Origin: an uncultured Christensenellaceae bacterium | Lineage (GTDB): Bacteria; Bacillota; Clostridia; Christensenellales; UBA3700 | NCBI GenBank assembly: GCA_944380305.1 | Contig: CALWHF010000003.1 | Coordinates: 66,317 to 130,316 of the forward strand | Length of the DNA stretch: 64,000 nt | Direction: 5' to 3' | Shown here: positions 5,417-18,877 of the stretch, in pieces | How the letters are laid out: every line of letters begins with the position of its first letter | How positions within the stretch are numbered: position 1 is the stretch's first letter | Made by a program: the position numbers and the translations under genes | Notes under the pieces: model-generated | The model's input: the letters and a program-made list of their open reading frames with translations, nothing else | What the model was told of the DNA's origin: nothing | Database searches by the model: none

Positions 5417-5699
5417 AATATCCTCACCACTATATATTGGGGGAATTCTCCCCTTTATACATGTAATTATACTATATATTGCGGTTTTAATCAAGCATAA
5501 TTTATAATATTATAATATTATTTCATATTATGCTTTCAAAACCGACGGGAAACCGCCTGATTTTCAGGTTTTAACCCCTGTTTTCCTACTGCCCGAAGAA
5601 AAATTCCCGGACGAAAACGCCTGCATCCGCTTTGCATATCGGGTATATTTTCGCGGTTTATGGACATATATTTGTTTGAATAATTTTGCGGAGAACACT

Positions 5700-6734
5700 A
5701 TGAAAATCGTACTTACGGGCGGCGGCACCGCGGGGCACGTCATGCCGAACATGGCTCTGCTCCCCTATCTTAAAAGAGATTTCGACGATATTATCTATAT
5801 CGGAAGCAAAGACGGTATCGAAAAGAAGATCTGTGCCGAACACGGCGTTACCTTCTACGACACGGATACGGTAAAGCTGAGACGCGACGCGTTGTTTTCA
5901 AACGCCGCCGTTCCGTTCAGGCTTGTAAATTGCGTGAAATCAGCGAAAAAACTTCTCAAAGATATTTCTCCCGACGTCGTGTTTTCCAAAGGCGGATACG
6001 TCGCACTGCCCGTCTGTCTTGCCGCGAGATCGCTGAAGATCCCTGTAGTCACGCACGAATCGGACATGACGCTCGGGCTTGCAAACAGGATAACTTCACG
6101 CTTTGCGGCACTGACGCTGACGTCGCACTCCTCGACCAAGGCGAAAAATGCTCTCTGCGTTGGAAATCCGATAAGAGACGAGTTGTTCGACGCGGACGGT
6201 GCGGGAGTAGCGAAAAAATACGGCTTGCCGTGCAAAAAACCGTTGCTGCTGGTCATAGGAGGCTCGGCGGGATCAACAGCCCTGAACGACCTGATATATT
6301 CGTGTCTCGACAGTCTTCTCGAGCGTTACGAAATAATACATCTGACGGGAAAGAATGCAGAAAACATCGAAAAAAAGGGATATTTTCACAAGCCGTACGC
6401 CGACGACGTATTCGATCTGTACGCCGCGGCAGCCGTGATAATTTCACGCGCGGGCGCAAACGCCGTCAGGGAGATCTCGGCTCTCGGCAAACGCGTTCTC
6501 TATATTCCCCTGCCCAAGGCCGCCTCGAGAGGAGACCAGATACTCAACGCGAAACAGGCGGTATCGAAAGGACAAGGCGCGATGCTCGAACAGGAAAACG
6601 CCTCCAAAGCAAAACTTCTGTCCGCACTCGACTACCTTTTCTCTTGCCCTCCCCCAAAACCTTCGGTCGACGCGGACGCAAACGCCAGGATCGCGGGGAT
6701 TCTCGCCAACGTCGTAAAAAGCAAAACGCCGTGA
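5700..6734 (+). CDS. murG: Undecaprenyldiphospho-muramoylpentapeptide beta-N-acetylglucosaminyltransferase
   Basis: MKIVLTGGGTAGHVMPNMALLP... is the typical MurG N-terminal G-loop, and the C-terminal half has SRAGANAVREI. The start at 5700 is preceded by GGAGA. Confidence 0.9.
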   Translation: MKIVLTGGGTAGHVMPNMALLPYLKRDFDDIIYIGSKDGIEKKICAEHGVTFYDTDTVKLRRDALFSNAAVPFRLVNCVKSAKKLLKDISPDVVFSKGGYVALPVCLAARSLKIPVVTHESDMTLGLANRITSRFAALTLTSHSSTKAKNALCVGNPIRDELFDADGAGVAKKYGLPCKKPLLLVIGGSAGSTALNDLIYSCLDSLLERYEIIHLTGKNAENIEKKGYFHKPYADDVFDLYAAAAVIISRAGANAVREISALGKRVLYIPLPKAASRGDQILNAKQAVSKGQGAMLEQENASKAKLLSALDYLFSCPPPKPSVDADANARIAGILANVVKSKTP

Positions 6735-6845: not shown

Positions 6846-6877
6846 TAAAAAAGGCGGCATCGGAAATGCCGCCTTTT
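6846..6877. terminator. Bidirectional rho-independent terminator between murG and the phage-like cassette
   Basis: The stem GGCGGCAT (6853-6860) pairs with ATGCCGCC (6866-6873). An A-run precedes it and a T-run follows, so it can terminate transcription on both strands. Confidence 0.8.
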
Positions 6878-6889
6878 CATTATTTATAA

Positions 6890-7171
6890 TTAGTTTTTAG
6901 TATTATCTATTATTTTATCGATAATATCGGCAAATTCACCCGCAGCGTTTTCTTCGCTTTTGCCAGCATTCGTTTCAGATTCCGCGCTGCTCTCGGTCTG
7001 CTTGTCGGGCGGCTTTACTATAAAACCGCTCACCGCGAGAAACCCGAGGAAAGCCGTGGTCAGCTCCTGCAGATAGGGTATCTCTCTCGTAAACCCTACC
7101 GCCTGCAATACGAGCATCAGTGCGCTCGCCACAGCCATCCAGAAATCGTAGGACTTTATCTTTTCTTTCAT
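6890..7171 (-). CDS. Phage holin (phi-LC3/LL-H-like, two TM helices)
   Basis: The 93-aa product MKEKIKSYDFWMAVASALMLVLQAVGF...AFLGFLAVSGFIVKPPDK has an acidic tail. GGAGG precedes the ATG at 7171. The start overlaps the upstream gene's stop by 4 nt. Confidence 0.65.
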   Translation of the reverse strand: MKEKIKSYDFWMAVASALMLVLQAVGFTREIPYLQELTTAFLGFLAVSGFIVKPPDKQTESSAESETNAGKSEENAAGEFADIIDKIIDNTKN

Positions 7172-7437
7172 ACTGCCTCCTTCAGTGATCCCGAGAGGAC
7201 GTCGTCGTCCTCGTCGGTAGTTTCGTCGGACAGAGCCGACCTCACGTCTCTTTTTATTTCTTCCACGTCTTTCGCCACTACCCTGATGCAGGTCAGGCTG
7301 TCGCCGAGAGACGCTATCGTATCCTGATATTTCCGTTCTCTCGTCCTGCTGTCCTTGAGTTCGAAGACGAGGAGCAGGCAAAAAAGTACCGCCCACGCGC
7401 CGTTGGCGATCACGGTCTCTATCGCACTCTCCCACAT
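7168..7437 (-). CDS. BhlA/UviB-family holin-like peptide
   Basis: MWESAIETVIANGAWAVLFCLLLVFELKDSRTRERKYQD...DVEEIKRDV matches the BhlA pattern of a single N-terminal TM helix followed by a charged helix. The start is set at ATG 7437, 8 nt after AGGAGG, rather than at the GTG at 7446. Confidence 0.65.
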   Translation of the reverse strand: MWESAIETVIANGAWAVLFCLLLVFELKDSRTRERKYQDTIASLGDSLTCIRVVAKDVEEIKRDVRSALSDETTDEDDDVLSGSLKEAV

Positions 7438-7449
7438 TGTCGTCACCTC

Positions 7450-8439
7450 CTATTTCGCGCCGCTTGACGCCTTGACGTATCTCGCGAGCAGATTCATGTA
7501 CTCGTAACCGAGATATGCCTGAAGATACTGGTTGTTATACACCATTTCCCTTGCCGTCGCGGGATCGAGCGTGTCGTAGAAATCTATCGCCAGGTTCAGC
7601 CTCTCGGAATAATCGTCGGCTTTCTCTCCTATGTATCCGTACAGCTTTTCGTATTCCGCCTGCTGATAGTCAGCCTCCATCTGTCTCTTCACGTCGTCCT
7701 GTATCGCCTTTTCGCGCCCGAGCTTGTAATCCGCGAGCTGTTTCTCGATCTTGTTGTTGTACTCCTGTATGGACTTTATCTCTTTGTCTCTCTTCGAGAT
7801 CAGATCTTCTATCTCGGTCGATATTTTCACAACGTATTCAGCGTTGAGGTCGTCGATCGCCGCCTGAAGTTCGTTGTTGAGCCCGTCTATCTGCGTCTGA
7901 TATTTTTTCGCGACCGCGTCTGCGTCCGCCTTTGCCTCGGCTATCATACTCTTTGCCTGCGCGTCAGCGTCCTCGCCGATAAGCATGCTTATGGAAGAAC
8001 GCGAAAGTCCGTTTTCGACTATCTTGTCTTCGTTCTGCTTTTTGGTCTTTTCGAGCGACGCGAGTATCTCTTTTTCAGTCTTTTCGTAATCGTCGTACGC
8101 CTGTTCGGTCTTGTTGCTAAGCTCTGCCGTCTTGTTCGCGGTATCCGCTTCGAGTACTTTTTTCTCCCCCTCGAGCTTGCCCGTATTTTCGGCTGTGACC
8201 CTGTTTCTTATCTCGTCCTCGCTCTCGCCTTCGTAGGTCTTGTATTCGTATTCGATCTCTTCGGGCAATGCGTCTTCTGCCGCCTGCTTTCTCTGTTCGA
8301 GCTCTTTCTGTCTGTACGCGGTGTGCATCTCCTTGAGTTTGGCGACAAGGTCTTCTTCGGTCTCGATTTTTGCAGGCTCTTTTCTGAACTCGGTCCCGGT
8401 ATCCAGCGCCAATTTGTGTGAAAATTTGTTGCTTACCAT
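7450..8439 (-). CDS. Phage coiled-coil protein (position of a tail plug/needle or ejection protein)
   Basis: The 329-aa protein is extremely E/K/D/A-rich and heptad-like over most of its length, with a short aromatic C-terminal domain. The function is inferred only from gene order. Confidence 0.4.
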   Translation of the reverse strand: MVSNKFSHKLALDTGTEFRKEPAKIETEEDLVAKLKEMHTAYRQKELEQRKQAAEDALPEEIEYEYKTYEGESEDEIRNRVTAENTGKLEGEKKVLEADTANKTAELSNKTEQAYDDYEKTEKEILASLEKTKKQNEDKIVENGLSRSSISMLIGEDADAQAKSMIAEAKADADAVAKKYQTQIDGLNNELQAAIDDLNAEYVVKISTEIEDLISKRDKEIKSIQEYNNKIEKQLADYKLGREKAIQDDVKRQMEADYQQAEYEKLYGYIGEKADDYSERLNLAIDFYDTLDPATAREMVYNNQYLQAYLGYEYMNLLARYVKASSGAK

Positions 8440-8515
8440 CTGCTTCCCCCCGATAAAATGTAGTAGTTGTATCTTGCGAAGATCTTTCTCAATCTCCTCT
8501 GTGCTCTCGTCAGTC

Positions 8516-8872
8516 TCATATCCTCAGCACTCCTTTCGCGGTAACGCGTATCCTGACGTCGGTCGCTCCGACGTCTGTCGAGAGAGACAGAACGTGTTTG
8601 CCCTTGCCGAGCCCTCCTATCTCTCTTATCCATATCCCGTTCTCGAACGAGTCGATCAGCTCCTCGTCCATAAACACCTTTATCCCGCCGTTGTCTCCGA
8701 AGACGTCTATCTCGACGCAAATCCTGCCGTTGCAACGGAGGGTTATCGCGTGCGGCGTATCCGCCCCGAGTTTTTGCAGCACGTCAACGAATTCGACGAC
8801 TTTCGTATCGCTCAGTTGCTGTGCGAGTTCGAGCGCGCTCCTCGCAGTTATTTCCAGTCTCTGATAGTTCAT
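8516..8872 (-). CDS. Hypothetical phage structural protein (118 aa)
   Basis: The product begins MNYQRLEITARSALELAQQL.... Its ATG overlaps the upstream stop as ATGA at 8870-8874. No family was recognised. Confidence 0.5.
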   Translation of the reverse strand: MNYQRLEITARSALELAQQLSDTKVVEFVDVLQKLGADTPHAITLRCNGRICVEIDVFGDNGGIKVFMDEELIDSFENGIWIREIGGLGKGKHVLSLSTDVGATDVRIRVTAKGVLRI

Positions 8873-10332
8873 CAACACCTCTCGTAAAACTCTACCGTAA
8901 CGCCTATCGGTCCTATCCTGACAGTATTGCCGGAAACCGCGATATAGAAATCGAAACGTCTGCCCGCGATACCGACAGGCACCACGTTGCTGCCTTTTTT
9001 GCATGCGATCTCTCTGACCCGTCCGTCCGCGACTATGCCCAGAATAAACGGATCGTCCGCATTCGAATCGACGTTGACGATAGTTTTGATCTCGGAATTG
9101 TCGCCGAAATCTATCCCGTTCACGCGCCAGTACCTTTGCGGTATCGCGCCGTCAAACGATATGTCCCTTTCTGCGCCGCAAACGTAACTGCCGTTTTTTA
9201 TCTTCAACACGAGCTTGTTGACGTAAGGCGTTTTCAGCGCGAGCATGTCGGTTATGCGGGTCCCTCTGTATATCTCGGTCACGCCGTTTTTCAGATCGGC
9301 TATCGCAAGCACGTTGTATTCCGATCCGTCTGCAACGTAGGCCCCTCTTCCGTCGTCGAACTTCTGCGCCATGAGCACATAGTATTTGTCCTCGAAGTAT
9401 ACCGCCTTGACCTTCTTCGCCTCCTTTATCACGTCATCGAACCTGTCCGTCAGACGCGTGACGTCGTATCCGTCAAACGAGAAAATACCGCTGCTCGACA
9501 CGAAAAATACGGACGAGCCGCATACGCTGACCGAATCTTTGCATATCATACCCGTATCCGAATAGACGCGTTTGAGCGAAAACTCGGTCTGATCCGAATA
9601 CGCGGTCAGTCTGTATATCCCGAATTCGCAGAAGATGTAGAGATTGTCGTTGAAGCTGACGACGCGGAGCACGTTGCCCGCAAGCCCGTCCGTCTCGATG
9701 TAGCCGCCTTCTTCGAGCGACACGTTCCAGTTGTACGGGTCGAACGCGTCCGAAAACCATACCGAAGGTCTCACCCCGTCCACGACGGCGTATACGCGCT
9801 CGTAGTGAGTACACAGGTCTGTCACGCGCAATGCGTCCGCGACGAACTCAAACTTGTCCGCCGACATGACGTATATCCCCGATCCGCCTCCCGCGAGCAT
9901 TGCGATATATTTTCCGTTATGGACGTAGTTGACCGCCGACGTGAATTGCCTGTCGCTGATGTCTTCCGACCACGATTTACCTCCGGGGATGACGAAAACG
10001 TAGCCCAGCTTGTCTTTCGACGAAAGTCCCAGACAGTAATATATGCCGTTTTCGTCGCTTAGCGTAAACGAAAGAAGAACGCCGTCCTCGTACCCTTCGG
10101 GGATCGGATCTATGCCCGTCGCGATATTTCCCGAAACGTCGGGCAGCAGCAATCTTTCATAGCCGAATCCCGTTGTCAGTTCTCCTTTTTCGAAACCGAA
10201 ATTATAAACCTCGTCGCAGTAGTCGCACGGCAATGTGTTCGGACTCGCCTTTTCGTCGAATCCCTTGAACGACGACAACAGAAATCTCCTTTTGGACGGT
10301 CTGTCGGTAGAAAACCTCTTCTCGTAGAACAT
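8872..10332 (-). CDS. Phage structural protein, beta-propeller-like repeats (position of a P22 gp10-like tail hub / DNA-stabilisation protein)
   Basis: The 486-aa protein has recurring blade-like segments (LYIFCEFGIYRL, VFFVSSSGIFSFDG, KYYVLMAQ). The start is set at ATG 10332, 8 nt after GGAGG, and it shares one base with the upstream TGA. The function is tentative. Confidence 0.45.
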   Translation of the reverse strand: MFYEKRFSTDRPSKRRFLLSSFKGFDEKASPNTLPCDYCDEVYNFGFEKGELTTGFGYERLLLPDVSGNIATGIDPIPEGYEDGVLLSFTLSDENGIYYCLGLSSKDKLGYVFVIPGGKSWSEDISDRQFTSAVNYVHNGKYIAMLAGGGSGIYVMSADKFEFVADALRVTDLCTHYERVYAVVDGVRPSVWFSDAFDPYNWNVSLEEGGYIETDGLAGNVLRVVSFNDNLYIFCEFGIYRLTAYSDQTEFSLKRVYSDTGMICKDSVSVCGSSVFFVSSSGIFSFDGYDVTRLTDRFDDVIKEAKKVKAVYFEDKYYVLMAQKFDDGRGAYVADGSEYNVLAIADLKNGVTEIYRGTRITDMLALKTPYVNKLVLKIKNGSYVCGAERDISFDGAIPQRYWRVNGIDFGDNSEIKTIVNVDSNADDPFILGIVADGRVREIACKKGSNVVPVGIAGRRFDFYIAVSGNTVRIGPIGVTVEFYERC

Positions 10333-10868
10333 CAGTACCACCTCCGCGCCTTGATCCCGACGGTCCTGACGGGTCTGGTCAGAGCGCGCATATCCTGTCT
10401 GAACCTCTCGGCAAAGCCTTCGCTCTGCTCGTACATGCCGTTTATCATGCAGTATTCGGCACAGGCGGCAAGCGCGACGGTCTTGGAGCTGACCGACGGA
10501 TCTACCTCGCAGTCACCGTCTGCCGTAACGGTTTCGGGAAGATAGCGGTATTCCACCGTGTAGTCGCCGTCTTTGCCCGTCTCGCAATAAAGCGTACGGG
10601 TCTTAAAGCGCACTTCGTTGCCTTCCTTATCCCTGACCGAAACTATCCTGCTTACCCTTTTGGGCATGTTTTCGAAGTAGAACTTGCCGCCCGTAGCACA
10701 CACTTCGCACTCTGCGGTCAGAGGCAGATATTCCTGTGCGATCTCGGAAAGCGCGAAATTGACGCAAAACTGCATCACCTGTAATTCATCGTCCGCAAAT
10801 CCCCCGTTTCCGTTCAGAGCCTTGCCGAGGAAAACGATCGTATTATCGATCACTTCCTGAAGTTTCAT
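10332..10868 (-). CDS. Phage head-tail adaptor-like protein (178 aa, tentative)
   Basis: It lies downstream of the capsid gene and a small ORF, and AGGAGG precedes the ATG at 10868. Its size and position match a podoviral gp4-type adaptor. No motif-level proof is available. Confidence 0.4.
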   Translation of the reverse strand: MKLQEVIDNTIVFLGKALNGNGGFADDELQVMQFCVNFALSEIAQEYLPLTAECEVCATGGKFYFENMPKRVSRIVSVRDKEGNEVRFKTRTLYCETGKDGDYTVEYRYLPETVTADGDCEVDPSVSSKTVALAACAEYCMINGMYEQSEGFAERFRQDMRALTRPVRTVGIKARRWY

Positions 10869-10909
10869 TATGCCTCCTTCGACAAAGGGGAGGACATGCC
10901 TCCCCCCGT

Positions 10910-11227
10910 CTATAATCTTAAATTCCCGACCGCTTGCGTCGCCGCCTTTTCGATCGCTTTTTTCTCAGCGACAGCGTTTTCGTGTTCAATCTCCGCGAGG
11001 ATCTCGTCTATCCTCTCAATCCTCGTCTTTCTGACGTAATCCACGGCGCGGGAGTCGAGCCGATCGTACGGTATAGTCGCCTGAAGGCTGTCGTCGTCCG
11101 CGCTCCTGACCTCGAATTTTCCCCTTCCCGTATTGTAAAACACTCTGTATCTGCCGTCTATGCTCCTTATTCTGTCCGCAACCGAGAACAGATCGTTTTC
11201 GACGGCGACGAGACGGTCTTTCGTCAC
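10910..11227 (-). CDS. Hypothetical phage protein (105 aa, GTG start coupled to the capsid stop)
   Basis: The frame reads VTKDRLVAVENDLFSVADRIRSIDGRYRVFYNTGRGKFEV... and has no internal Met. The only nearby start is GTG at 11227-11225, overlapping the capsid TGA as GTGA. Confidence 0.5.
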   Translation of the reverse strand: MTKDRLVAVENDLFSVADRIRSIDGRYRVFYNTGRGKFEVRSADDDSLQATIPYDRLDSRAVDYVRKTRIERIDEILAEIEHENAVAEKKAIEKAATQAVGNLRL

Positions 11228-12393
11228 GCTGTTATGCCCGACAGCTTGTACTGACCTATCGGCTTGTCGCAGATCAGGTCGGCGTACTTGACAAGCGTTG
11301 CGGAGTAGGTTGCGCTGCCCGCCTTCTGCTTGATGACTCTGCCGCCGTCGCCCTCGAGCCATCTCCAGTCGCACAGCTGGTGCAGCTTGAAATCGCCCGT
11401 ATTCAGCATATACATCGTGCCGTCCTCGACAAATTTGTCCGCAACGACGGGAATACCGTTGAAAGTGACCGCCTTGTAACCGCCGTCGAGATTCATGTAG
11501 TCGAGGTTCATTCTCGCGCTCATGCAGTTGTCGAGATAAAATCTTCTGACGTCGTACGCGCAGACTATCATGTCGATAGTGCCGCCCGCGACTTCCTCTA
11601 CTTCGTCGATCGCACTCTGCATTCCGACGAAAGAGATCGAGCCCACGTTGCTTTTTGAGCCGCTCTTCATCCATTCTCTGCCGCTTCTCGACAAGCCGTA
11701 AAGGTCTTTGTCGGAGAAGATCGCGGCAAGTCCCGTCAGCTCGTTATCTTTGGAACCCTGCACCGTCATATAGTCGCCGTTTTCCACGGCAGCACCAGAC
11801 GCACCGCCGAAAGTTACGGTCTTGTTCGCTCTGTCTATCGAAGTGATCCTGACTCCTCTCAGCCCGTCGCGTACGGTGTCGGTCGAGCCGTCGTAAACGT
11901 CTACGACCATGCCTTCCATAAGGTTCTTGACGCTCGCCGCTACGACCTTGTTGTTCGCTCCGCCCTGAGCGGTCACGGTCGCTATCTTGCCCGAGCCGTC
12001 ACCGTAAAGCATTCTTCCGAGATTGAACTTGGACGCCTTGAGCAGCCCTTCCATCTCTGCGTCGAGCAGATTCACGAACGCGCCTACGCTGTTCTGCGAC
12101 GCCCTGATCGCTTTATCCGAAAGCTCTATCGTGCCGTAAAGGTTCTTGAGCTCGAGTCTGAAACGGTCATAGTTGTTGGATGCCGCGGCGGGAAGATCTC
12201 CCGTCTCGGTTCCCGCACCGATACCGCCGTTGAGACCGTACGGCACAAGCTTGACTATTTCCTTGCCCCAGACGTCTGAGCTCGTCTGCTTGATCTTCGC
12301 GAGCAGCGGATTCACGCCCACGTTGAGCTGATTGGCTACCACGCCGAGATATACAGTTTTGAGTGCCTTCTCGGCAGTTTCCATTGTTACCAT
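11224..12393 (-). CDS. Phage major capsid protein (HK97-fold type)
   Basis: The 389-aa protein begins MVTMETAEKALKTVYLGVVANQLN...LELKNLYGTIELSDKAIRASQN... and follows the scaffold gene directly. AGGAGGA lies 8 nt upstream of the ATG. Confidence 0.8.
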   Translation of the reverse strand: MVTMETAEKALKTVYLGVVANQLNVGVNPLLAKIKQTSSDVWGKEIVKLVPYGLNGGIGAGTETGDLPAAASNNYDRFRLELKNLYGTIELSDKAIRASQNSVGAFVNLLDAEMEGLLKASKFNLGRMLYGDGSGKIATVTAQGGANNKVVAASVKNLMEGMVVDVYDGSTDTVRDGLRGVRITSIDRANKTVTFGGASGAAVENGDYMTVQGSKDNELTGLAAIFSDKDLYGLSRSGREWMKSGSKSNVGSISFVGMQSAIDEVEEVAGGTIDMIVCAYDVRRFYLDNCMSARMNLDYMNLDGGYKAVTFNGIPVVADKFVEDGTMYMLNTGDFKLHQLCDWRWLEGDGGRVIKQKAGSATYSATLVKYADLICDKPIGQYKLSGITA

Positions 12394-12396
12394 ATC

Positions 12397-13116
12397 TTAT
12401 ATCCTCCTGTTTTCGAGCATATTTTTCACTATACCGCCCGCTTCGCGTATGCTCTTCGGTCGCGAAGGCGGCGTGAGATGCGTTCTCCCGCTTGCGGCAA
12501 TGGTCGGCGGGACGCGCGTCTCTATCTTTTCGCGGAGATAATCCTCTATTATCCTCTCTCTGACCCTCTCGCTCGCATAGACGTATTTCTCGAGAAATCC
12601 GTCGTCTGCCGCGAGCTCTTCATAGGGTCTGTCGGCGGCTCTGAGCACGCGGAAATAGGCTTGTTCCAGGCAGTCGCTTTGCGTTGCCAGCTCTCTGTCC
12701 TTCGCAAGCTCTTTCGCGATTTCGTGCGCGTGTCTTGCCGCCGAGGGGTATTTTTGCATAAAACCGCTCACCCTGCCGTCCCAGTCTTCGGACTCGTAAA
12801 AGGGAGTTGGCGCACCGTCGCCGTTCTCTGCCGTCGGCAAATCCGTATGCTGCCCCTCCGGTCGCGACGTCTGCGGCTCCCTTTCTCCTTCGTCCTCTTT
12901 GCGCTCGCCCGATCTTGCCGTTTCGAGTTCGCGCACGAGGGCGGAATTCGCCTGACATTTTTTCGTGAATTCCCTCTGCAGGTTGTCGTATGCCTTTTCA
13001 AGTTCTTCCGCAGAAAAAAACTTGTTGCAAAAGGCGGGTCTCTCCTTGTCTTTGCCGTCCGCGTTCGCGGTATCGGCAAGGGGGAGCTGCTCCGTTTGTT
13101 TTTGCGTATCTTCCAT
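12397..13116 (-). CDS. Phage scaffolding protein
   Basis: The 239-aa acidic, helical protein sits between portal and capsid. It carries the typical FFSAEELEKAYDNLQREF segment, and GGAGGG precedes the ATG. Confidence 0.6.
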   Translation of the reverse strand: MEDTQKQTEQLPLADTANADGKDKERPAFCNKFFSAEELEKAYDNLQREFTKKCQANSALVRELETARSGERKEDEGEREPQTSRPEGQHTDLPTAENGDGAPTPFYESEDWDGRVSGFMQKYPSAARHAHEIAKELAKDRELATQSDCLEQAYFRVLRAADRPYEELAADDGFLEKYVYASERVRERIIEDYLREKIETRVPPTIAASGRTHLTPPSRPKSIREAGGIVKNMLENRRI

Positions 13117-13136
13117 ATATCCCTCCGCCGTAAGTC

Positions 13137-15017
13137 TTATTTATCGCCCGTGCTTTCGTCCGTATTCCGCGCCGCAGCCGACGAAAGCGCGTACATCTGA
13201 TGTTCTTTTATATGAGCGTCCATCTCGGCGTACAGCTTTGCGTCTTTCAGCACGCTGTCCTCGAGAAGGCACTTGATATGCTCGTCGATGTGTATCGAGT
13301 GATCGTCGTACGGACAAGCGGAGATCCTCTCCTTGCCGAGCGAAAGATTCTCTCTCATCGCGCGCTTTCTCTGCGTTTCGTCCACGTCCTTCGCGCTCTC
13401 CCAGTTGCCTATGCCGAGCATCTCGAGCACTTTGACTTTCGTTCGCGGACTCATCGTACCGTCCTGTTCTGCAAGCACTCCCATGCGTATCAGTTCTATC
13501 ACCATGTTGCGCTTTTCGGCAGTGGTCTGAGTCACGTCGTCGTTCGTGTCGAATACCAGATCCTCGCATTGCAGATCGTTGCCCGTGAAATAGGTCAGCT
13601 CGGGTTCTCCGTTCTCGCCGGTGATACGCTTGAGCCTCTTCTGCGTCGCGAACTGCTTATAGAGGTAAAGCAGCATTCTGCACACTCTCTTTATGCACAG
13701 CCTGAGCGACGCCGTGGACAGCGAAAGTCTGGTATCGTCCTGACTCACGAGCAGCGAGATAGCCTTGCCCGACATGTTGCCGTAGGTCTGCGAATACTTG
13801 CTCAGTTCGCTGACGCCGCTGACCGTGACGAATTCCGAAAGCAGTCTTTCTTCTTCGTATGTGAAGTCCGCGGGCACGCTTCCCGTCTCTATGAACCTGG
13901 GAATGTTCGACCCTTGTCTGTATATCAGCACTTTGCCGGGAGAGAGTCCCTCTTCCTCCAGATTATCCATATCCACGCTGCCGTCCTCGACAGCGAGTAT
14001 CCCCATCGAAATGCGGTTCAGATATTCGTGCTTTCTGTTCTTGACCGCGTTGTAACTGCGTTGCAGCGGGATCATTCTCTCGACGACGGAAGTGCCGAAG
14101 AAACTGCCGACCTTCTTTATGCAGTCTGTCTTTGCGAAAGGAAATCCCCTCCTCGACTGAACGTCGGTGATATACGGCAGCCCGCCGTAATACAGCAGTT
14201 TGTCTCCCGCTATTATCGCAAGCTCTCCTTCGGGCTTGTCTTTGGTGGGTCTCGTATATCTTTCTATCACTACCGCATAGCCGTCCACCTTTGAAGAGAT
14301 CACGTTGCCTACGCTCGCGTTGTACCCGAGTCCGCCCGCAACGGACGCGTTGTCGAGAGTGAACACGTTGACTTCTTCGCCGTCTGTCTTCACCCCCCAT
14401 ATATCCTCGATCTCGGATACGGGATATGCCTTCGCGTGTATGATGCTTGCACATTCCTCAAGCGAATTCGCACAGACGTTGTCGGGGAAAATCTCGAACG
14501 GCGGCACTACGCTTATACGCACGTCTCCTACACGGACATGATTTTTTTGCTTGTCTTCTCCTATGCTTTCGCCGAGATCCCTGTCCCACGTCACCTTGAA
14601 GAAACAAGTGCCTGCCACCTCGCTCCAAGCGACCGCGTCGTTGATGAGAGACGGCATGTCGTTCTGCTCTGCGACCGCATTTATCAGAGCGGTCGACAGC
14701 TTTGCGGACTGTATATCCGATTCGTCGTTCGAAAAAGGTCTGACGGTTACGCCCGTATTCACTCTCGTCAGCTTTGACATCCTCGTCTCGAGCACGGACG
14801 CGATGTGGTTGTAGACCTCTCTTTCCTGCCAGAAATACTGCTTGCCGAATTCTTCGACGTCGCCTGTCGGCATTATCTGCATATACTGGTTGCCGTTTAC
14901 GAAATTCATGTTGAGCTGCCATTGCAGTTCGAGCGGCTTTCTGTCCTCTCTCCGCTTTTCGTAATCCTTTCTGACGTCTGCGACGATGTCTTCGGCAAAT
15001 AACTTTTTGTCTTTCAT
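13137..15017 (-). CDS. Phage portal protein
   Basis: The 626-aa protein begins MKDKKLFAEDIVADVRKDYEKRREDRKPLELQWQLNMNFVNGNQY.... It lies downstream of the terminase module, and its ATG overlaps the upstream stop as ATGA. Confidence 0.8.
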   Translation of the reverse strand: MKDKKLFAEDIVADVRKDYEKRREDRKPLELQWQLNMNFVNGNQYMQIMPTGDVEEFGKQYFWQEREVYNHIASVLETRMSKLTRVNTGVTVRPFSNDESDIQSAKLSTALINAVAEQNDMPSLINDAVAWSEVAGTCFFKVTWDRDLGESIGEDKQKNHVRVGDVRISVVPPFEIFPDNVCANSLEECASIIHAKAYPVSEIEDIWGVKTDGEEVNVFTLDNASVAGGLGYNASVGNVISSKVDGYAVVIERYTRPTKDKPEGELAIIAGDKLLYYGGLPYITDVQSRRGFPFAKTDCIKKVGSFFGTSVVERMIPLQRSYNAVKNRKHEYLNRISMGILAVEDGSVDMDNLEEEGLSPGKVLIYRQGSNIPRFIETGSVPADFTYEEERLLSEFVTVSGVSELSKYSQTYGNMSGKAISLLVSQDDTRLSLSTASLRLCIKRVCRMLLYLYKQFATQKRLKRITGENGEPELTYFTGNDLQCEDLVFDTNDDVTQTTAEKRNMVIELIRMGVLAEQDGTMSPRTKVKVLEMLGIGNWESAKDVDETQRKRAMRENLSLGKERISACPYDDHSIHIDEHIKCLLEDSVLKDAKLYAEMDAHIKEHQMYALSSAAARNTDESTGDK

Positions 15018-15229
15018 ACGCCCTCTCCTCTTTTCTTGTTGAGCATGTTTTTAGGGCTTTTCGGTGTCAGTATTTTACCGATCTGTCCATAAAGCTCCCT
15101 GATGCAATCTTCGCAAAGATTGAGCGAATTGCGACTGTCGCCGTTTTCGGCGACGAATTGAAATGCCGCCGTGTTTTTACACGTCGGCATCTCGCACCTT
15201 GTCTTTACTCCGAGTTTTCGAACCTGCAT
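15014..15229 (-). CDS. Small zinc-ribbon-like phage protein (71 aa)
   Basis: Cys pairs CEMPTC...CEDC are present, and a strong AGGAGG lies 7 nt before the ATG at 15229. Its 5' end overlaps the preceding ORF out of frame by 53 nt. Confidence 0.55.
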   Translation of the reverse strand: MQVRKLGVKTRCEMPTCKNTAAFQFVAENGDSRNSLNLCEDCIRELYGQIGKILTPKSPKNMLNKKRGEGV

Positions 15230-15497
15230 TTTGTTCCTCCTTCTCTTTTATCTTTTCTAGCTCTTTGAGAAGTCTGATCCTCAGCTCCTCGAGCTGTTTG
15301 TCCGTATACCCCTTGAGAGGGTCTTCCTGCGTCCGCTCCAGCACCGCTTTGATCGCGGTCGTATCGGGCGGTATATACTTTTTGGATACCTTACATTTCG
15401 TAACTTCCTTGTCTCGGTCGTACTCCTCGACCGTTTCTTCGACGAAATATCCCGTCGCCTTTTTCATAAGAATGCTGTCTATATTCTTTCTTCTCAT
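15177..15497 (-). CDS. TerS-like C-terminal fragment protein (106 aa)
   Basis: VSKKYIPPDTTAIKAVLE resembles the conserved ...IPPD.TA.IFWLKNR segment of small terminase subunits, but no N-terminal HTH domain is present. The ATG overlaps the terL stop as ATGA. Its position downstream of terL is atypical. Confidence 0.45.
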   Translation of the reverse strand: MRRKNIDSILMKKATGYFVEETVEEYDRDKEVTKCKVSKKYIPPDTTAIKAVLERTQEDPLKGYTDKQLEELRIRLLKELEKIKEKEEQNAGSKTRSKDKVRDADV

Positions 15498-16921
15498 AGT
15501 CCTCTCCGACGAATTTTGCTTATCAGCCTGTCTTTATCCCGCTGTATGACCGTCTTTCGCTCTTTGGGAGTTTTTGCGGGTTCGGGCTTTGTCATGATAT
15601 AGTACCTCAGCGCGTCCAGAGCGTGATCGTCTTTCTTTACTGGTCTGTCTCCCGTTCCCCACCAGTACGACTTCAGCTCGCGTATCAGATTTACGCAACA
15701 CGGGAATATCTTTATCCTGTCCGTCGCGAAATAGGATTTTACGCGCGCTATACCGCTGAAAAGATCTTTGTCCACATGCGTGTTTACCAATATGTCTCTT
15801 TCGTAAAACAAGTCCGCCACGCTCTTCGCGCTCGCTAGCGTCTTCTGCGTCGCCGCGCTGTCTATAAGTGCCTCGAGCCGTCCTTTGCCGTCCCTGTGCC
15901 ATCCGAGAGAATTTGCAGTCTCGAAAATCTTTTTTGCGTGATAGTCTATATCTCTTCCCGCCTCGTACCACTCTCCGACGACGTAGACCGTGCCGTCGTG
16001 ATCGGTCGCGAAAAACAGACAGGCGAGCGGATTGTTCAGCCCGGGATCTATGCTTATCGTATCCTGCCAGTCGAAAGGCACTTCGAAGGGACTTTCGAGA
16101 ACGTGACGCGACGGATCGAACTCTCTGTATACTATCCCTTCCGCCGCGCTGAACTTGCCGTATCTTCTCGAGTTAAGCGTCTCTTCGTCCATGCACGCGC
16201 TGAGCGCGGCTATCTCGTCCTTATCGAGGAACGGATTGTCTGCCCACTCCATTTCTGTACACCAGACCTCTTTGTCTCCGCCGCTGTTCAGATATATCGC
16301 ATCGTACACCCACGTCAGACCTTTGAGCGGCGTCATTGTGCCCCACACTTCGCCTTTGCGATCGAGGACGCGCATACGACATTCCTGATATATATCTAAC
16401 GGCGGCTCCTCGTCGAACCAAACGAAATCGAGCGACGTGCCCTGAAACTTCTCTCTGCCCTGGTCGCAGCTCTTGAACGCGACTTTAGACAATCCGCCCG
16501 ACACGTTCTTTATCAGAATATAGTCGATTATACCGTACTGCGCGCTTTCCTTTCTGCCCGACGACATGACTATATCCTCTATCCAGTCGGGATTGAGGTA
16601 TGACAAAAACTTGCTTTGCGCGACGTCTCTCTGCACCTCGTAGGACAGCGAAACTATCCAGCCCTCAACCTCGCCCCTGTTCTTGCGGTACGGATGTATC
16701 CCTCTTGCCCACCATACCGCCTCGACCGCTCCGCACTCGGTCTTGCCGCTGCGATTGCCGCCGAATACCCAGCGGTTGCGCTTCTGACACCTGTGGAACG
16801 CCATCTGTTTTTCGTGCACTTTGTCGCCCGTATTGTAACGTGCCAGTCTGTCGTTGTCATAGCGGCGTTTCTGCTCGTTTTCTATCGCGATTATCCTCGA
16901 CAATATCTCTTTTTCTGTCAT
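15494..16921 (-). CDS. terL: Phage terminase large subunit
   Basis: Walker A is GGNRSGKTECG and the Walker B-like motif is LDFVWFDEEP, with a nuclease-half pattern in the C-terminus. The start is set at MTEKEILS (ATG 16921), directly after GGGAGGA. The longer track ORF reaching 17107 is unsupported. Confidence 0.85.
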   Translation of the reverse strand: MTEKEILSRIIAIENEQKRRYDNDRLARYNTGDKVHEKQMAFHRCQKRNRWVFGGNRSGKTECGAVEAVWWARGIHPYRKNRGEVEGWIVSLSYEVQRDVAQSKFLSYLNPDWIEDIVMSSGRKESAQYGIIDYILIKNVSGGLSKVAFKSCDQGREKFQGTSLDFVWFDEEPPLDIYQECRMRVLDRKGEVWGTMTPLKGLTWVYDAIYLNSGGDKEVWCTEMEWADNPFLDKDEIAALSACMDEETLNSRRYGKFSAAEGIVYREFDPSRHVLESPFEVPFDWQDTISIDPGLNNPLACLFFATDHDGTVYVVGEWYEAGRDIDYHAKKIFETANSLGWHRDGKGRLEALIDSAATQKTLASAKSVADLFYERDILVNTHVDKDLFSGIARVKSYFATDRIKIFPCCVNLIRELKSYWWGTGDRPVKKDDHALDALRYYIMTKPEPAKTPKERKTVIQRDKDRLISKIRRRGL

Positions 16922-17045
16922 AATCCTCCCCGAAACGCCATACTTTTTACAATAAATAACCGTTTTTCCTGTTGCGATATTTCTCGCATAGTGTATAATA
17001 TTAGTAACCCTGCGGGCGGTTTCCGCCTGCTTTACGGAGCGTAAA

Positions 17046-17888
17046 ATGAAAAAAATTGCTTTAGTCAGTCTGCTGATAATTGCCGTATGTCTGCTCTCTG
17101 CGAGCACGGCTTTTGCGGATACTCAAGCCTCGGGCGGACAGACTTTTTATATCGCAAACGAAAATCTGACCGTATACGTCGCATCGGGCGAAGGATACCA
17201 GGCGGCATTCGTGATCCCCAAGACGTATTACTTCCGCACGCTTTCCAACAACGGCAACTATACGTCGATAGTCTACAACAAGAATACCGACTACGGCATA
17301 AGCCTGTATGTCATGACAAGCGATTTAGAGAACAAAGCCGCCGTGACAAAGGACGCCGTGACCGACGAAAAAGCGTATTACAATATACCCGTCGCCGACG
17401 TCGTGCTGTCCGACAAGAATTCGACCAACTTCTACAAACCCGATAATCTCATCGAATACAACACCAAGGGTGAGAATATATCAGAGATCCGTCGTATCCT
17501 CGGCGTTTATCAGTACGGCAACGAGGTCTACTTCTCAGCTGTAGTCAACGTAAATTCAACCAACAAGCTGATGCTGTTCAAAGCGACGGAAACTAACCGC
17601 GCGGATTTCACGCTCGCGTCCATTCCTCTGCACGAGATAACGATAGACAAAAACAACGCGCAGAACGAAGGCGTGATCTCGACCCCCGGCGGCAGTAATA
17701 CAGACGTAACGGGCAACAACGTGATACGCAACGTGATGATTGCGGTCATCTGCATACTGTGCGTGCTTGTCGTCTTCCTTATATTCCGTCCGACAAAGAA
17801 CGCGAAAAACCGTTACGAAATGGACAATCGCGAAAACGCGGACAGAGGTTACGACGATTACGATCCCCGCTACGGCGACCGCCGCTAA
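17046..17888 (+). CDS. Secreted, C-terminally membrane-anchored protein of unknown function
   Basis: A signal peptide MKKIALVSLLIIAVCLLSASTAFA is followed by a domain of about 200 aa, a TM helix (VMIAVICILCVLVVFLIF) and an R/D/Y-rich tail. A TTGCGA-16-TATAAT promoter-like motif and a GGAG site lie upstream. The gene converges on the regulator gene with 4 nt of overlap. Confidence 0.7.
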   Translation: MKKIALVSLLIIAVCLLSASTAFADTQASGGQTFYIANENLTVYVASGEGYQAAFVIPKTYYFRTLSNNGNYTSIVYNKNTDYGISLYVMTSDLENKAAVTKDAVTDEKAYYNIPVADVVLSDKNSTNFYKPDNLIEYNTKGENISEIRRILGVYQYGNEVYFSAVVNVNSTNKLMLFKATETNRADFTLASIPLHEITIDKNNAQNEGVISTPGGSNTDVTGNNVIRNVMIAVICILCVLVVFLIFRPTKNAKNRYEMDNRENADRGYDDYDPRYGDRR

Positions 17889-18463
17889 TCCGAACAGCCT
17901 ATTGCCGCAGCTCTCTTATCCGGGAGCAACAGCCTCGCGGCGACGGCATCCTCTATCCTCAACATGAGTTTTTTGCTGTCAGACAGCTTACCCGCGCGGC
18001 CGAAAACGTCCGCGCCTTTTTTCGCCTGTTCGTAATAACCGCCTATCAGTACGTCGCCCGAATATCTCTTTTCGAACCACTTTGCGTCGTAACCTTCGGC
18101 AAGCAGCGCGCAAGCCGCCTTTTTCAAAGCCTCCCCGTACCAACGGAAAGCACTCCTCTTAGAATACTCAAGTTTGTCCGCGATCTCTTCCATCGTCAAC
18201 GGGTAATGCGCCCTTAAATAAAGTATCTGCGCATATCTGAGCGGCAGTTTTTCGAGAACTTTATCTACAAGTACTTTTGCGTTTATGTAGCTTTCCGACC
18301 TTGCGTTGCACTCTATCATTTTACCGACGAGTCCCATGGTGTCCTCACAGTAAAATCCGCTTTCCGCAAGCGAACGCGAAGTCTGCTTGCAAGCCGCAAC
18401 GGCTCTTGGCAAACGTCTGTACGCGGCTAATATTGCCGTGACCCAACAAATCAAATCATCCAT
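17885..18463 (-). CDS. Sigma-70 region-4-like / RinA-ArpU-Xpf-type phage late-gene activator (tentative)
   Basis: The 192-aa protein has an HTH segment LRAHYPLTMEEIADKLEYSKRSAFRWYGEALKKAA typical of sigma region 4 and phage late activators. GGAGGG precedes the ATG. Confidence 0.5.
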   Translation of the reverse strand: MDDLICWVTAILAAYRRLPRAVAACKQTSRSLAESGFYCEDTMGLVGKMIECNARSESYINAKVLVDKVLEKLPLRYAQILYLRAHYPLTMEEIADKLEYSKRSAFRWYGEALKKAACALLAEGYDAKWFEKRYSGDVLIGGYYEQAKKGADVFGRAGKLSDSKKLMLRIEDAVAARLLLPDKRAAAIGCSD

Positions 18464-18482
18464 ACCCTTCCCTCCGAAAAAC

Positions 18483-18511
18483 AGTATATTACCGCGGCTA
18501 CCTCAAATCAA
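18483..18511 (-). promoter_or_regulatory. Candidate sigma-A promoter of the regulator gene
   Basis: On the minus strand, TTGATT (18511-18506), a 17-nt spacer and TATACT (18488-18483) lie about 20 nt upstream of the RBS and ATG. Confidence 0.4.
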
Positions 18512-18530
18512 TCTTTAGTGCCAAATTTTA

Positions 18531-18544
18531 TGAACGTATGTTCG
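18531..18544. promoter_or_regulatory. Candidate LexA (Cheo/SOS) box
   Basis: The plus strand reads TGAACGTATGTTCG, and the reverse reads CGAACATACGTTCA. This matches the Gram-positive consensus CGAAC-RNRY-GTTC at 13 of 14 positions. It lies about 20 nt upstream of the candidate -35. Confidence 0.35.
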
Positions 18545-18827
18545 TATTTTTCTATATGATAATCTCCAAAATCCACCACAGTATGTCATATTAAACACAA
18601 TTTTCAGCCTTTTCGTAACAAATGCGGCGATAAAAATGCGAACATAACGTAAAATCCGACACGCGTAAAAAGCGTAGTCCGCGCGCGATACGCTCTCATC
18701 TCTTTCAAAATTAAGAAATAAATATTATTTTCAATAAATCCGATCATCTGCGGTCTCTTTCCCGACTTTTCTCGATAATCACAGTGCATGTCTCACCTGC
18801 CGTTTTCGATATTTTTACTGTTACGGC

Positions 18828-18853
18828 AAAAAAAATCCCCGCTGTCGCGGGGA
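18828..18853 (-). terminator. Rho-independent terminator of the ileS-methyltransferase-rluA transcription unit
   Basis: The minus strand reads TCCCCGC-gaca-GCGGGGA followed by T8, immediately downstream of the rluA-family stop. Confidence 0.8.
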
Positions 18854-18877
18854 TAGAATCGAATAGAAAAATTGCCG

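Follow-up and report, generated by a model that had tools for sequence, protein, structure and literature searches.

Gene transfer agents (GTAs) of the RcGTA type, found in Alphaproteobacteria, are vertically inherited, evolve under purifying selection, and are placed under host regulation through CtrA and quorum sensing. They have a siphovirus-type tail and an HK97-type protease–capsid module, their small terminase (TerS) is devoid of a DNA-binding domain, their activator GafA carries a sigma-region-4-like domain, and their fibres and lysis genes reside at separate loci. PBSX of Bacillus subtilis is a defective-phage cassette that is induced by DNA damage, depends on the sigma-like late activator Xpf, and packages ~13 kb of host DNA; it is myovirus-like, with a contractile tail, a tape measure, an Xre repressor, and endolysins. 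The cassette described here is an 11.6-kb cluster of phage-type packaging, head, short-tail, and holin genes at positions 6890–18463 of a 64-kb stretch of DNA from an uncultured Christensenellaceae bacterium (GenBank assembly GCA_944380305.1, contig CALWHF010000003.1); the whole stretch of 64,000 nucleotides is referred to below as the window.

A podovirus-like GTA-like element, FpGTA, has been described in Faecalibacterium prausnitzii (Borodovich et al., Nat Commun 2026; PMC12946183). The element consists of a 10.5-kb operon in the order TerL (large terminase), portal, one open reading frame (ORF), capsid, two ORFs, nozzle, one ORF, and an abundant coiled-coil protein termed 'TolA', and its 40-nm particles contain 8.4–8.9 kb of host DNA (PMC12946183). 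A second operon, located 125 kb away, encodes a BppU-like fibre, a receptor-binding protein (RBP), a holin, and an endolysin (PMC12946183). The same study reported GTA-like packaging of 4.1-kb and 6.3-kb fragments in metagenome-assembled genomes (MAGs) of Christensenellales, where the responsible locus was not identified, and FpGTA is the sole encoding element identified among the taxa with a packaging signature (PMC12946183). The initial annotation of the window, which knew of no described podovirus-style equivalent, is outdated in this respect, as FpGTA is one. No paper on the cassette itself was found in the literature library that was searched.

The cassette is read here as a host-owned, vertically inherited derivative of a P22/SU10-like podovirus that retains the late module only (regulator, DNA-packaging motor, head, short tail, and holins) and whose product would be GTA- or PBSX-like; this reading, which is drawn from the genes, is given a probability of roughly 0.65. 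The cassette is found intact at the same site in many species, and it is therefore most likely a host-owned, GTA-like particle system. It is most likely SOS-inducible as well as GTA-like.

Distribution, Fixed Locus, and Purifying Selection

Relatives of the capsid protein number in the thousands in public data. A scan of one genome per species, queried with a 14-sequence capsid alignment (a 51-sequence alignment being too diverse), yielded at least 589 candidate stretches that encode a capsid relative, and all of the best 80 of these, each from a species-representative genome, contain a collinear cassette. The capsids of these 80 are 58–94% identical to that of the window, and all come from Christensenellaceae, Christensenellales, or Clostridia MAGs. 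As delineated by ORF clustering, the collinear core begins with the regulator and the divergent membrane protein (each where present), continues through TerL, the TerS-like protein, the zinc-ribbon protein, the portal, and the scaffold, and proceeds to the capsid, an ORF of ~105 aa, the adaptor, the nozzle, a variable slot, DUF7934, and the holins (again where present).

In six congeneric species genomes, whose gyrB and ileS are 95–96% and 91–95% identical to those of the window, the cassette lies between rluA–methyltransferase–ileS and murG–hydrolase–gyrB, as it does in the window. The same flanks are found in the distant loci L017, L003, L020, and L021, in which gyrB, ileS, and rluA (where present) are 61–75% identical, with ileS at 66% in L017. 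Housekeeping genes flank the cassette in every locus, and the divergence of the capsid follows theirs. The adjacent murG gene (window 5676–6734) is itself of note, with 64–72% identity in the congeneric genomes and a dN/dS of 0.18, a divergence that is unusually fast for a housekeeping gene of the cell wall.

All orthologous ORFs are intact and nearly constant in length across the 13 loci compared. The pairwise ratio of nonsynonymous to synonymous substitution (dN/dS), approximate at these distances, is 0.04–0.06 for TerL, portal, and capsid and 0.12–0.30 for the others, well below 1 throughout, and that of the flanking genes is 0.03–0.18. The GC content of the cassette is 52.4% against 53.2%, its relative synonymous codon usage correlates with that of the host (r = 0.93), and GC content at third codon positions is host-like too. 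The fixed flanks, intact ORFs, dN/dS values, and codon usage together point to vertical inheritance under purifying selection, as is characteristic of GTAs. Synteny, dN/dS, and base composition had been proposed as checks in the initial annotation, which regarded the region as an intact, candidate domesticated cassette of podoviral design; each of them, together with the intact ORFs and the lack of att-like repeats, supports that reading. Spread, fixed locus, selection, and composition together rule out three readings of the region, namely as a satellite that is still mobile, as a prophage of recent date, and as a remnant in decay.

The content of the cassette is in keeping with this history. 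Profile scans of all 15 ORFs against Pfam, PHROGs, and NCBIfam returned no match to integrase, repressor, replication, tape-measure, fibre, or endolysin families; no tRNA gene was found in the whole window, and the longest att-like repeats between the cassette borders are 10-mers, within the range expected by chance. The cassette is thus a phage-derived structural cluster in the chromosome without replication, integration, or immunity genes, as in GTAs. The profile and repeat scans detected none of the hallmarks of a functional temperate prophage (att sites, a repressor, replication genes, and an integrase or recombinase) and none of those that mark phage-inducible chromosomal islands (PICIs), namely an integrase, a replication module, and site-specific insertion with att duplication, and the locus is fixed across species. 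The list of absences given in the initial annotation therefore holds for integrase, repressor, replication genes, tape measure, recognizable fibre, and endolysin, while the claimed absence of a receptor-binding protein is uncertain, as discussed below.

Layout of the Cassette

The 11.6-kb region comprises 14 minus-strand ORFs and one plus-strand ORF (Table 1). It is bounded by the bidirectional terminator listed in the table and by a second terminator at 18835–18854, so that both edges of the element lie within the window, as originally claimed. The ORF coordinates first assigned and the minus-strand orientation of the listed genes were borne out, as were the 4-nt and 1-nt overlaps at the gene junctions, and the roles of the sigma-like regulator, TerL, the TerS-like fragment, portal, capsid, adaptor, nozzle, DUF7934 protein, BhlA, and holin are backed by profile or structure matches. 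The gene list was incomplete in one respect, the conserved plus-strand gene at 17046–17888 having been overlooked. The roles of the scaffold and of the 105-aa and 71-aa ORFs, which have no family match, are assigned by position.

Table 1. Features of the cassette and its borders, in window coordinates.
Positions	Strand	Feature	Basis
6848..6878	both strands	Bidirectional intrinsic terminator, ending cassette and murG	14-bp stem followed by T-run
6890..7171	-	Holin, 93 aa	phrog_297 2.6e-7; two hydrophobic segments in sequence
7168..7446	-	BhlA-family holin-like protein, 92 aa	Holin_BhlA 7.5e-12; phrog_2429 7.4e-11
7450..8439	-	DUF7934 coiled-coil protein, 329 aa; putative virion-associated role (plug, needle, or internal protein)	Pfam DUF7934 4.6e-44; role inferred
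8516..8872	-	Variable-slot protein after nozzle, 118 aa; candidate distal tail or receptor-binding component	Inferred
8872..10332	-	Tail nozzle (hub), beta-propeller, 486 aa	AlphaFold2 model and Foldseek
10332..10868	-	Head-to-tail adaptor, 178 aa	SU10_adaptor 0.0038 (weak); phrog_2377 'adaptor Ad1' 0.007; between capsid and nozzle genes
10910..11227	-	Conserved 105-aa protein, head-completion or connector candidate	Position after capsid gene
11224..12393	-	Major capsid protein, podovirus type, 389 aa	NCBIfam NF033394 capsid_maj_Podo 2.2e-75 (254 bits); phrog_14242 3.8e-58
12397..13116	-	Putative scaffolding protein, 239 aa	Position only, between portal and capsid genes
13137..15017	-	Portal, P22/SU10 type, 626 aa	P22_portal 1.9e-27; SU10_portal 2.3e-17; phrog_156 1.6e-38
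15014..15229	-	Cys-rich zinc-ribbon-like protein, 71 aa	CxxxxC...CxxC in sequence; no family match
15177..15497	-	Truncated small-terminase-like protein, 106 aa	phrog_309 TerS 4.5e-6
15494..16921	-	Large terminase TerL, 475 aa	Terminase_6N 1.9e-12; Terminase_6C 3.9e-7; phrog_2 5.6e-29
16922..17045	.	Divergent intergenic region, membrane-protein gene / TerL	Conserved motif TTATACACTAT (alignment of 12 loci)
17046..17888	+	Type-I membrane protein, 280 aa (signal peptide, ectodomain, C-terminal transmembrane segment, basic tail)	Sequence
17885..18463	-	Sigma-70 region-4-only protein, 192 aa; candidate late-operon activator	Pfam Sigma70_r4_2 1.5e-5; phrog_36 'transcriptional regulator' 2.8e-9
18464..18834	-	Regulatory region upstream of sigma-like gene	LexA (Cheo) box, promoter-like element, further conserved footprints

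The remainder of the window holds housekeeping and surface-protein genes and nothing else phage-like. One of these, unrelated to the cassette, encodes a 1393-aa BspA-type leucine-rich-repeat surface protein (39487–43668; LRR_5, E 2.5e-206), a type that is typical of host-associated Clostridia.

Packaging and Head Genes

TerL is 86–91% identical among congeners with a dN/dS of 0.04, the capsid protein is 90–94% identical with a dN/dS of 0.05, and the dN/dS of the portal is 0.06. The TerS-like protein matches only positions 202–268 of the 319-position phrog_309 profile, a C-terminal segment, and no DNA-binding domain is recognizable in it; 29 of its 35 orthologues match the TerS profile. Searches of PDB profiles gave nothing usable for the TerS-like protein, the capsid protein, or the adaptor, one weak match for the portal, and coiled-coil noise only for DUF7934. 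The Pfam, PHROGs, and NCBIfam scans gave no match for the putative scaffold or for the ORFs of 71 aa (Cys-rich), 105 aa, and 118 aa. Three of these are positionally conserved: the zinc-ribbon ORF is kept in 33 loci (cluster c11), an ORF of ~100–130 aa stands at the position of the 105-aa ORF in about 50 loci (clusters c9/c44), and the scaffold (cluster 1) occupies the portal–capsid interval in 76 loci, evolving fast (57–65% identity in congeners).

Tail, Variable Slot, and Lysis Genes

The 486-aa protein, originally described as a hub-like beta-propeller, is identified as a podovirus nozzle by its predicted structure. The AlphaFold2 model, built from a 32-sequence alignment (31 homologues supplied), has a pLDDT of 86.4 and a pTM of 0.88; it was adopted in place of a single-sequence model of the 489-aa form, which was rejected (pLDDT 33). 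The best Foldseek matches in the PDB are the tail protein of Pa223 (6.8e-21, TM-score 0.70) and VP1 (4e-19, TM-score 0.75), followed by SU10 (7z47_G), P22 gp10 (8eap_D/9jg6_a), Sf6 gp8, GP4, and T7 gp12, and the sequence profile of the nozzle matches SU10 7z47_G at 0.0024. The two lengths correspond to alternative starts, a GTG at 10341 (489 aa) and an ATG at 10332 (486 aa); the latter corresponds to the 486-aa length of a 99%-identical database relative and creates the 1-nt TGATG overlap with the adaptor gene. The adaptor assignment is extended by its orthologues, 4 of 36 of which match SU10_adaptor, with a best value of 5.3e-6.

Head and tail genes differ greatly in evolutionary rate, the tail genes being the faster: among congeners, capsid, portal, and TerL are 86–94% identical, the adaptor is 53–57% identical, and the nozzle is 44–51% identical. 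Nozzles of the same species share 99% identity, and the nearest relative beyond it stands at 51%. The least conserved gene of the cassette is that of the slot protein, with 38–45% identity in congeners and a dN/dS of 0.30. A jackhmmer search joins this 118-aa protein to slot proteins of 109–131 aa elsewhere and to the 370–374-aa proteins of loci L023 and L024, and the slot is occupied by proteins of 290–460 aa in other loci; no informative Pfam domain was found in the slot proteins or their neighbours. A fast-evolving family of such variable length would resemble a recipient-specificity or receptor-binding module. Since the nozzle and the slot protein are the fastest-evolving products of the cassette and the slot protein has long-form homologues, the lack of a receptor-binding protein is not established.

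Downstream of the nozzle and slot genes, the DUF7934 gene is retained in 65 loci. Endolysin genes beside the holins were considered as a possibility for other loci and rejected, as the downstream ORFs look like housekeeping genes.

Regulator, Membrane Protein, and Control Regions

The sigma-region-4-like gene is the first of the cassette in 38 loci and evolves with a dN/dS of 0.13; its product also matches the NCBIfam sigma70-ECF family, below the cutoff (4.8e-5). A LexA (Cheo) box of near-consensus Firmicute type, CGAACATACGTTCA, is located at 18531–18544, ~75 nt upstream of the gene, and a conserved promoter-like element (TTGATT-17-TATACT, 18511–18483) found by promoter scan adjoins it. An alignment of seven congeneric loci shows little or no change in box and promoter, and variation in the bases next to them. 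With one mismatch allowed, a box was found directly upstream of the orthologous regulator in 27 of 38 loci, where chance would give ~0.03 per 430 nt. Within the window alone the number of boxes is not significant (two matches against five expected), and support for the box thus comes from its positional conservation across loci only. The predicted box suggests SOS control in the clade of the window.

Upstream of the regulator gene, two further footprints are conserved, AATATGACA and TTGGCAC (window 18550–18600). Like the motif TTATACACTAT of the divergent intergenic region, they may be bound by the sigma-like protein or by a different regulator. A reading of TTGGCAC as a sigma-54 element was dropped after inspection of the alignment by eye, which showed an incorrect spacing and no GC element.

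The plus-strand membrane-protein gene belongs to the cassette: it diverges from TerL, 52 loci have it in the same place and orientation, and its dN/dS is 0.18. The bacterial SH3_3 domain is matched by 6 of 28 members of the family, at best with 1.6e-7. In about 18 other loci, a large cassette-flanking protein, c15 (L056:1969–3840), combines a signal peptide, a GW/SH3_3 domain, and a C-terminal transmembrane segment, and the product at L003:16688–18085 is likewise a large cassette-flanking protein, N-terminally anchored with a big ectodomain. A BLAST comparison of c15 (623 aa) with the 280-aa membrane protein detected no homology. The divergent intergenic region between c15 and the regulator contains a LexA-like box, and c15 may be co-regulated with the cassette.

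Reduced, Displaced, and Phage Relatives

Phage-like contigs whose capsids are 30–37% identical to that of the cassette share its head–tail gene order and continue with fibre or internal-virion proteins of 700–2400 aa, which carry CBM_4_9 or ART-PolyVal domains. In the cassette, the place of these large proteins is taken by the small slot protein and DUF7934. A tblastn search of phages with the capsid retrieved phages of Arthrobacter, Microbacterium, and Cellulosimicrobium together with two unclassified Caudoviricetes records, and nothing else. In IMG/VR, 45 contigs contain relatives; they are short fragments that hold the same cassette or housekeeping flanks. Three IMG/VR loci (L095, L096, and L106; capsid 56–60% identical) have ORFs of 790–805 aa and ~680 aa downstream of the nozzle gene in place of the slot protein and DUF7934, and may have undergone less reduction, with fibres retained.

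A minimal chromosomal form, with 39% capsid identity, is represented by L085:2051–10152 (also L086 and L087). It extends over ~8 kb from TerL to BhlA, in the order TerL, 81 aa, portal, 182 aa, capsid, 106 aa, 175 aa, a 497-aa nozzle, and BhlA, and lies next to genes for RNase J, an O-methyltransferase, and peptidase U32, as in one subclade of the closer family. Recurrent contigs of ~15.8–16 kb with the same 39% capsid identity were considered as a possible small complete phage genome, which would have set a bound on head capacity, a candidate that was rejected, as the contigs are chromosomal fragments with the minimal cassette beside RNase J.

In another group of loci, a defence island directly follows the capsid gene, at the position of the tail genes (L136:11595–21209, with L018 alike and related genes in L044 and L128). 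The island of L136 combines genes for a WYL protein, a metallophosphatase, and an NYN nuclease with those of a type I restriction–modification system, whose two hsdS genes and integrase form a shufflon-like arrangement.

Proposed Mechanism

Upon DNA damage, LexA would be inactivated at the box upstream of the sigma-region-4-like gene, whose product would then turn on the ~10-kb operon extending from TerL to the holins. A procapsid would be built from the portal, scaffold, and capsid proteins, and would be filled by TerL through headful packaging of any available DNA, that is, host DNA, by analogy with RcGTA and FpGTA. Packaging is expected to proceed without sequence specificity, by the same analogy, because the TerS-like partner is truncated and has no recognizable DNA-binding domain. 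The adaptor, nozzle, variable-slot protein, and DUF7934 would close the head and form a stubby tail, and the producer would finally be lysed by BhlA and the holin together with a host or unlinked muralytic enzyme. The initial annotation had deduced the packaging of host DNA from a large head, on the grounds that the capsid protein is 389 aa long. This argument has no basis, because capsid size is set by the T-number and not by the length of the capsid protein, and known GTA heads are small, those of FpGTA measuring 40 nm and holding 8.4–8.9 kb.

Several points weigh against a host-owned GTA- or PBSX-like system. Particle formation, random packaging, induction, and release are all inferred from genes, and the dN/dS values are approximate because dS is saturated (0.9–2.3). 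The LexA box is missing at the threshold of one mismatch in 11 of the 38 GTDB loci and in 10 of 13 IMG/VR loci, being present in only 3 of the latter. The deeper lineage represented by L085 has no regulator, membrane protein, or DUF7934 at the locus, and the tail part can be displaced or lost in lineages with a defence island after the capsid gene. No fibre or receptor-binding domain is recognizable in Pfam searches that included the slot proteins and their neighbours, and an endolysin is absent from the cassette and its neighbourhood in every locus examined. A head capacity of 12 kb or more could, moreover, allow the whole cassette to fit into one head.

Alternative Explanations

The strongest competitor, though an unlikely one, holds that particles or lysis are produced and that the selected function is not gene transfer. 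The cassette would then serve PBSX-like killing, or an SOS-triggered altruistic lysis and release of DNA, and the packaged DNA would be incidental or would not be injected. The SOS-type control and sigma-like activator do recall PBSX and its Xpf, two holin-type genes have been kept, and the fast diversification of the tail genes would suit a strain-specific weapon equally. No bacteriocin-type killing mechanism is known, however, for the short, non-contractile tails of podoviruses, and the TerL and TerS-like genes are among the best conserved of the cassette (dN/dS 0.04–0.07), which argues that DNA packaging itself is under selection. The same question was left open for FpGTA by its authors (PMC12946183).

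A phage satellite of the PICI or capsid-forming PICI-like kind, which would package itself and need a helper for induction, replication, tail fibres, or lysis, is very improbable. The size of ~11.6 kb and the possession of a capsid, portal, and terminase without fibre or endolysin are shared with capsid-forming PICIs, and relatives occur on the 45 IMG/VR contigs. Those contigs are, however, the short fragments described above, and the cassette is devoid of integrase, excisionase, replication or primase genes, and att repeats. It occupies one chromosomal site across species and genera, its divergence follows that of housekeeping genes, and its own adaptor and nozzle make a borrowed tail unnecessary.

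Still more doubtful is the view that the cassette is an inert relic of a prophage, intact in this genome by chance. Such a remnant would account for phage-derived genes, known as genes alone, that do not amount to a complete life cycle, but not for ORFs that are intact and conserved in length in all compared genomes, a collinear cassette in at least 80 species genomes, dN/dS well below 1, codon usage ameliorated to that of the host, and a conserved regulatory box. That the cassette belongs to a still-autonomous temperate phage, the genes of which for integration, replication, and fibres would reside at another genomic site, is the least probable explanation, although the distant second operon of FpGTA makes unlinked partner genes plausible, given the conserved housekeeping flanks on both sides and the otherwise phage-free 64-kb window, and because a genome in two parts cannot be packaged as a unit and would by definition not be that of an autonomous virus.

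Significance

The cassette is a candidate locus for the 4.1-kb and 6.3-kb packaging of Christensenellales, and provides a concrete candidate for a taxon that has a packaging signature and no known locus. It combines wide conservation (at least 589 stretches with a capsid relative) with a predicted switch from LexA box to sigma-like activator, and it offers TerL, portal, and nozzle as distinct knockout targets. If the cassette is active, gene flow in a health-associated gut lineage that is hard to culture would become experimentally tractable, and an independent case of podovirus domestication would be added; an inactive cassette would leave its strong conservation to be explained. A broader proposal, which is tentative and falls well short of even odds, is that the cassette represents an ancient, order-wide, SOS-triggered GTA of Christensenellales and neighbouring gut Clostridia that was domesticated independently of FpGTA, that is the source of the 4–6-kb packaging, and whose hypervariable nozzle and slot proteins set the range of recipients. 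Independence from FpGTA is proposed because the capsid family differs, by annotation.

Comparison with Known Systems

The cassette shares the portal, adaptor, and nozzle families of P22/SU10-like podoviruses and the uncultured phages L088–L090, as well as the order TerL, portal, scaffold, capsid, adaptor, nozzle. It differs from them in its capsid, which is only 26–37% identical to theirs, and in having neither the fibre and internal-virion proteins of 700–2400 aa nor the rest of a phage genome. A TerS without a recognizable DNA-binding domain, a sigma-region-4-like protein as actual or candidate activator, and vertical inheritance under purifying selection are common to the cassette and RcGTA, whereas the siphovirus-type tail, the HK97-type protease–capsid module, the separately located fibre and lysis genes, and the CtrA and quorum-sensing control of RcGTA contrast with the podoviral design and the predicted cis LexA box of the cassette. 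PBSX is likewise a chromosomal, phage-derived Firmicute cassette with a sigma-like activator and SOS control, the latter predicted from sequence in the present case; its contractile tail, tape measure, Xre repressor, and endolysins have no counterpart in the cassette, where sheath, tube, tape-measure, and baseplate families gave no match and the tail is of the adaptor–nozzle type.

The closest likeness is to FpGTA, which was compared by published description and annotation. Both are chromosomal, phage-derived operons of ~10 kb in gut Clostridia, without replication or integration genes, and both are podovirus-like, with a portal–adaptor–nozzle tail core and a closely parallel gene order. Their nozzles match the same P22 gp10 template (8eap), and the TerS candidate has no DNA-binding domain in either. 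The two differ in the capsid: that of FpGTA (RCH50849.1) is annotated as N4-gp56, whereas the only NCBIfam match of the cassette capsid is NF033394 capsid_maj_Podo, with no N4-gp56 match in NCBIfam and no N4-like phage match by tblastn against phages. A Prp-like protein stands between portal and capsid in FpGTA, in place of the unrelated 239-aa protein of the cassette, and the TerS candidate lies upstream of TerL in FpGTA and downstream in the cassette. The holin, endolysin, fibre, and RBP of FpGTA are encoded in a distant operon, whereas the cassette has two holin-type genes in cis, and no second operon of that kind (fibre, RBP, endolysin) was found within the 64-kb window. A search for homologues of DUF7934 gave 26 unnamed proteins and established no link to 'TolA'. 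The sigma-like regulator in cis with its LexA box and the divergent membrane protein are features of the cassette that set it apart from FpGTA. On gene content and order, the cassette is most likely a further case of the recently established kind of podoviral GTA-like element that began with FpGTA, and what it adds is the LexA box upstream of the regulator and a set of tail genes that evolve much faster than the head genes.

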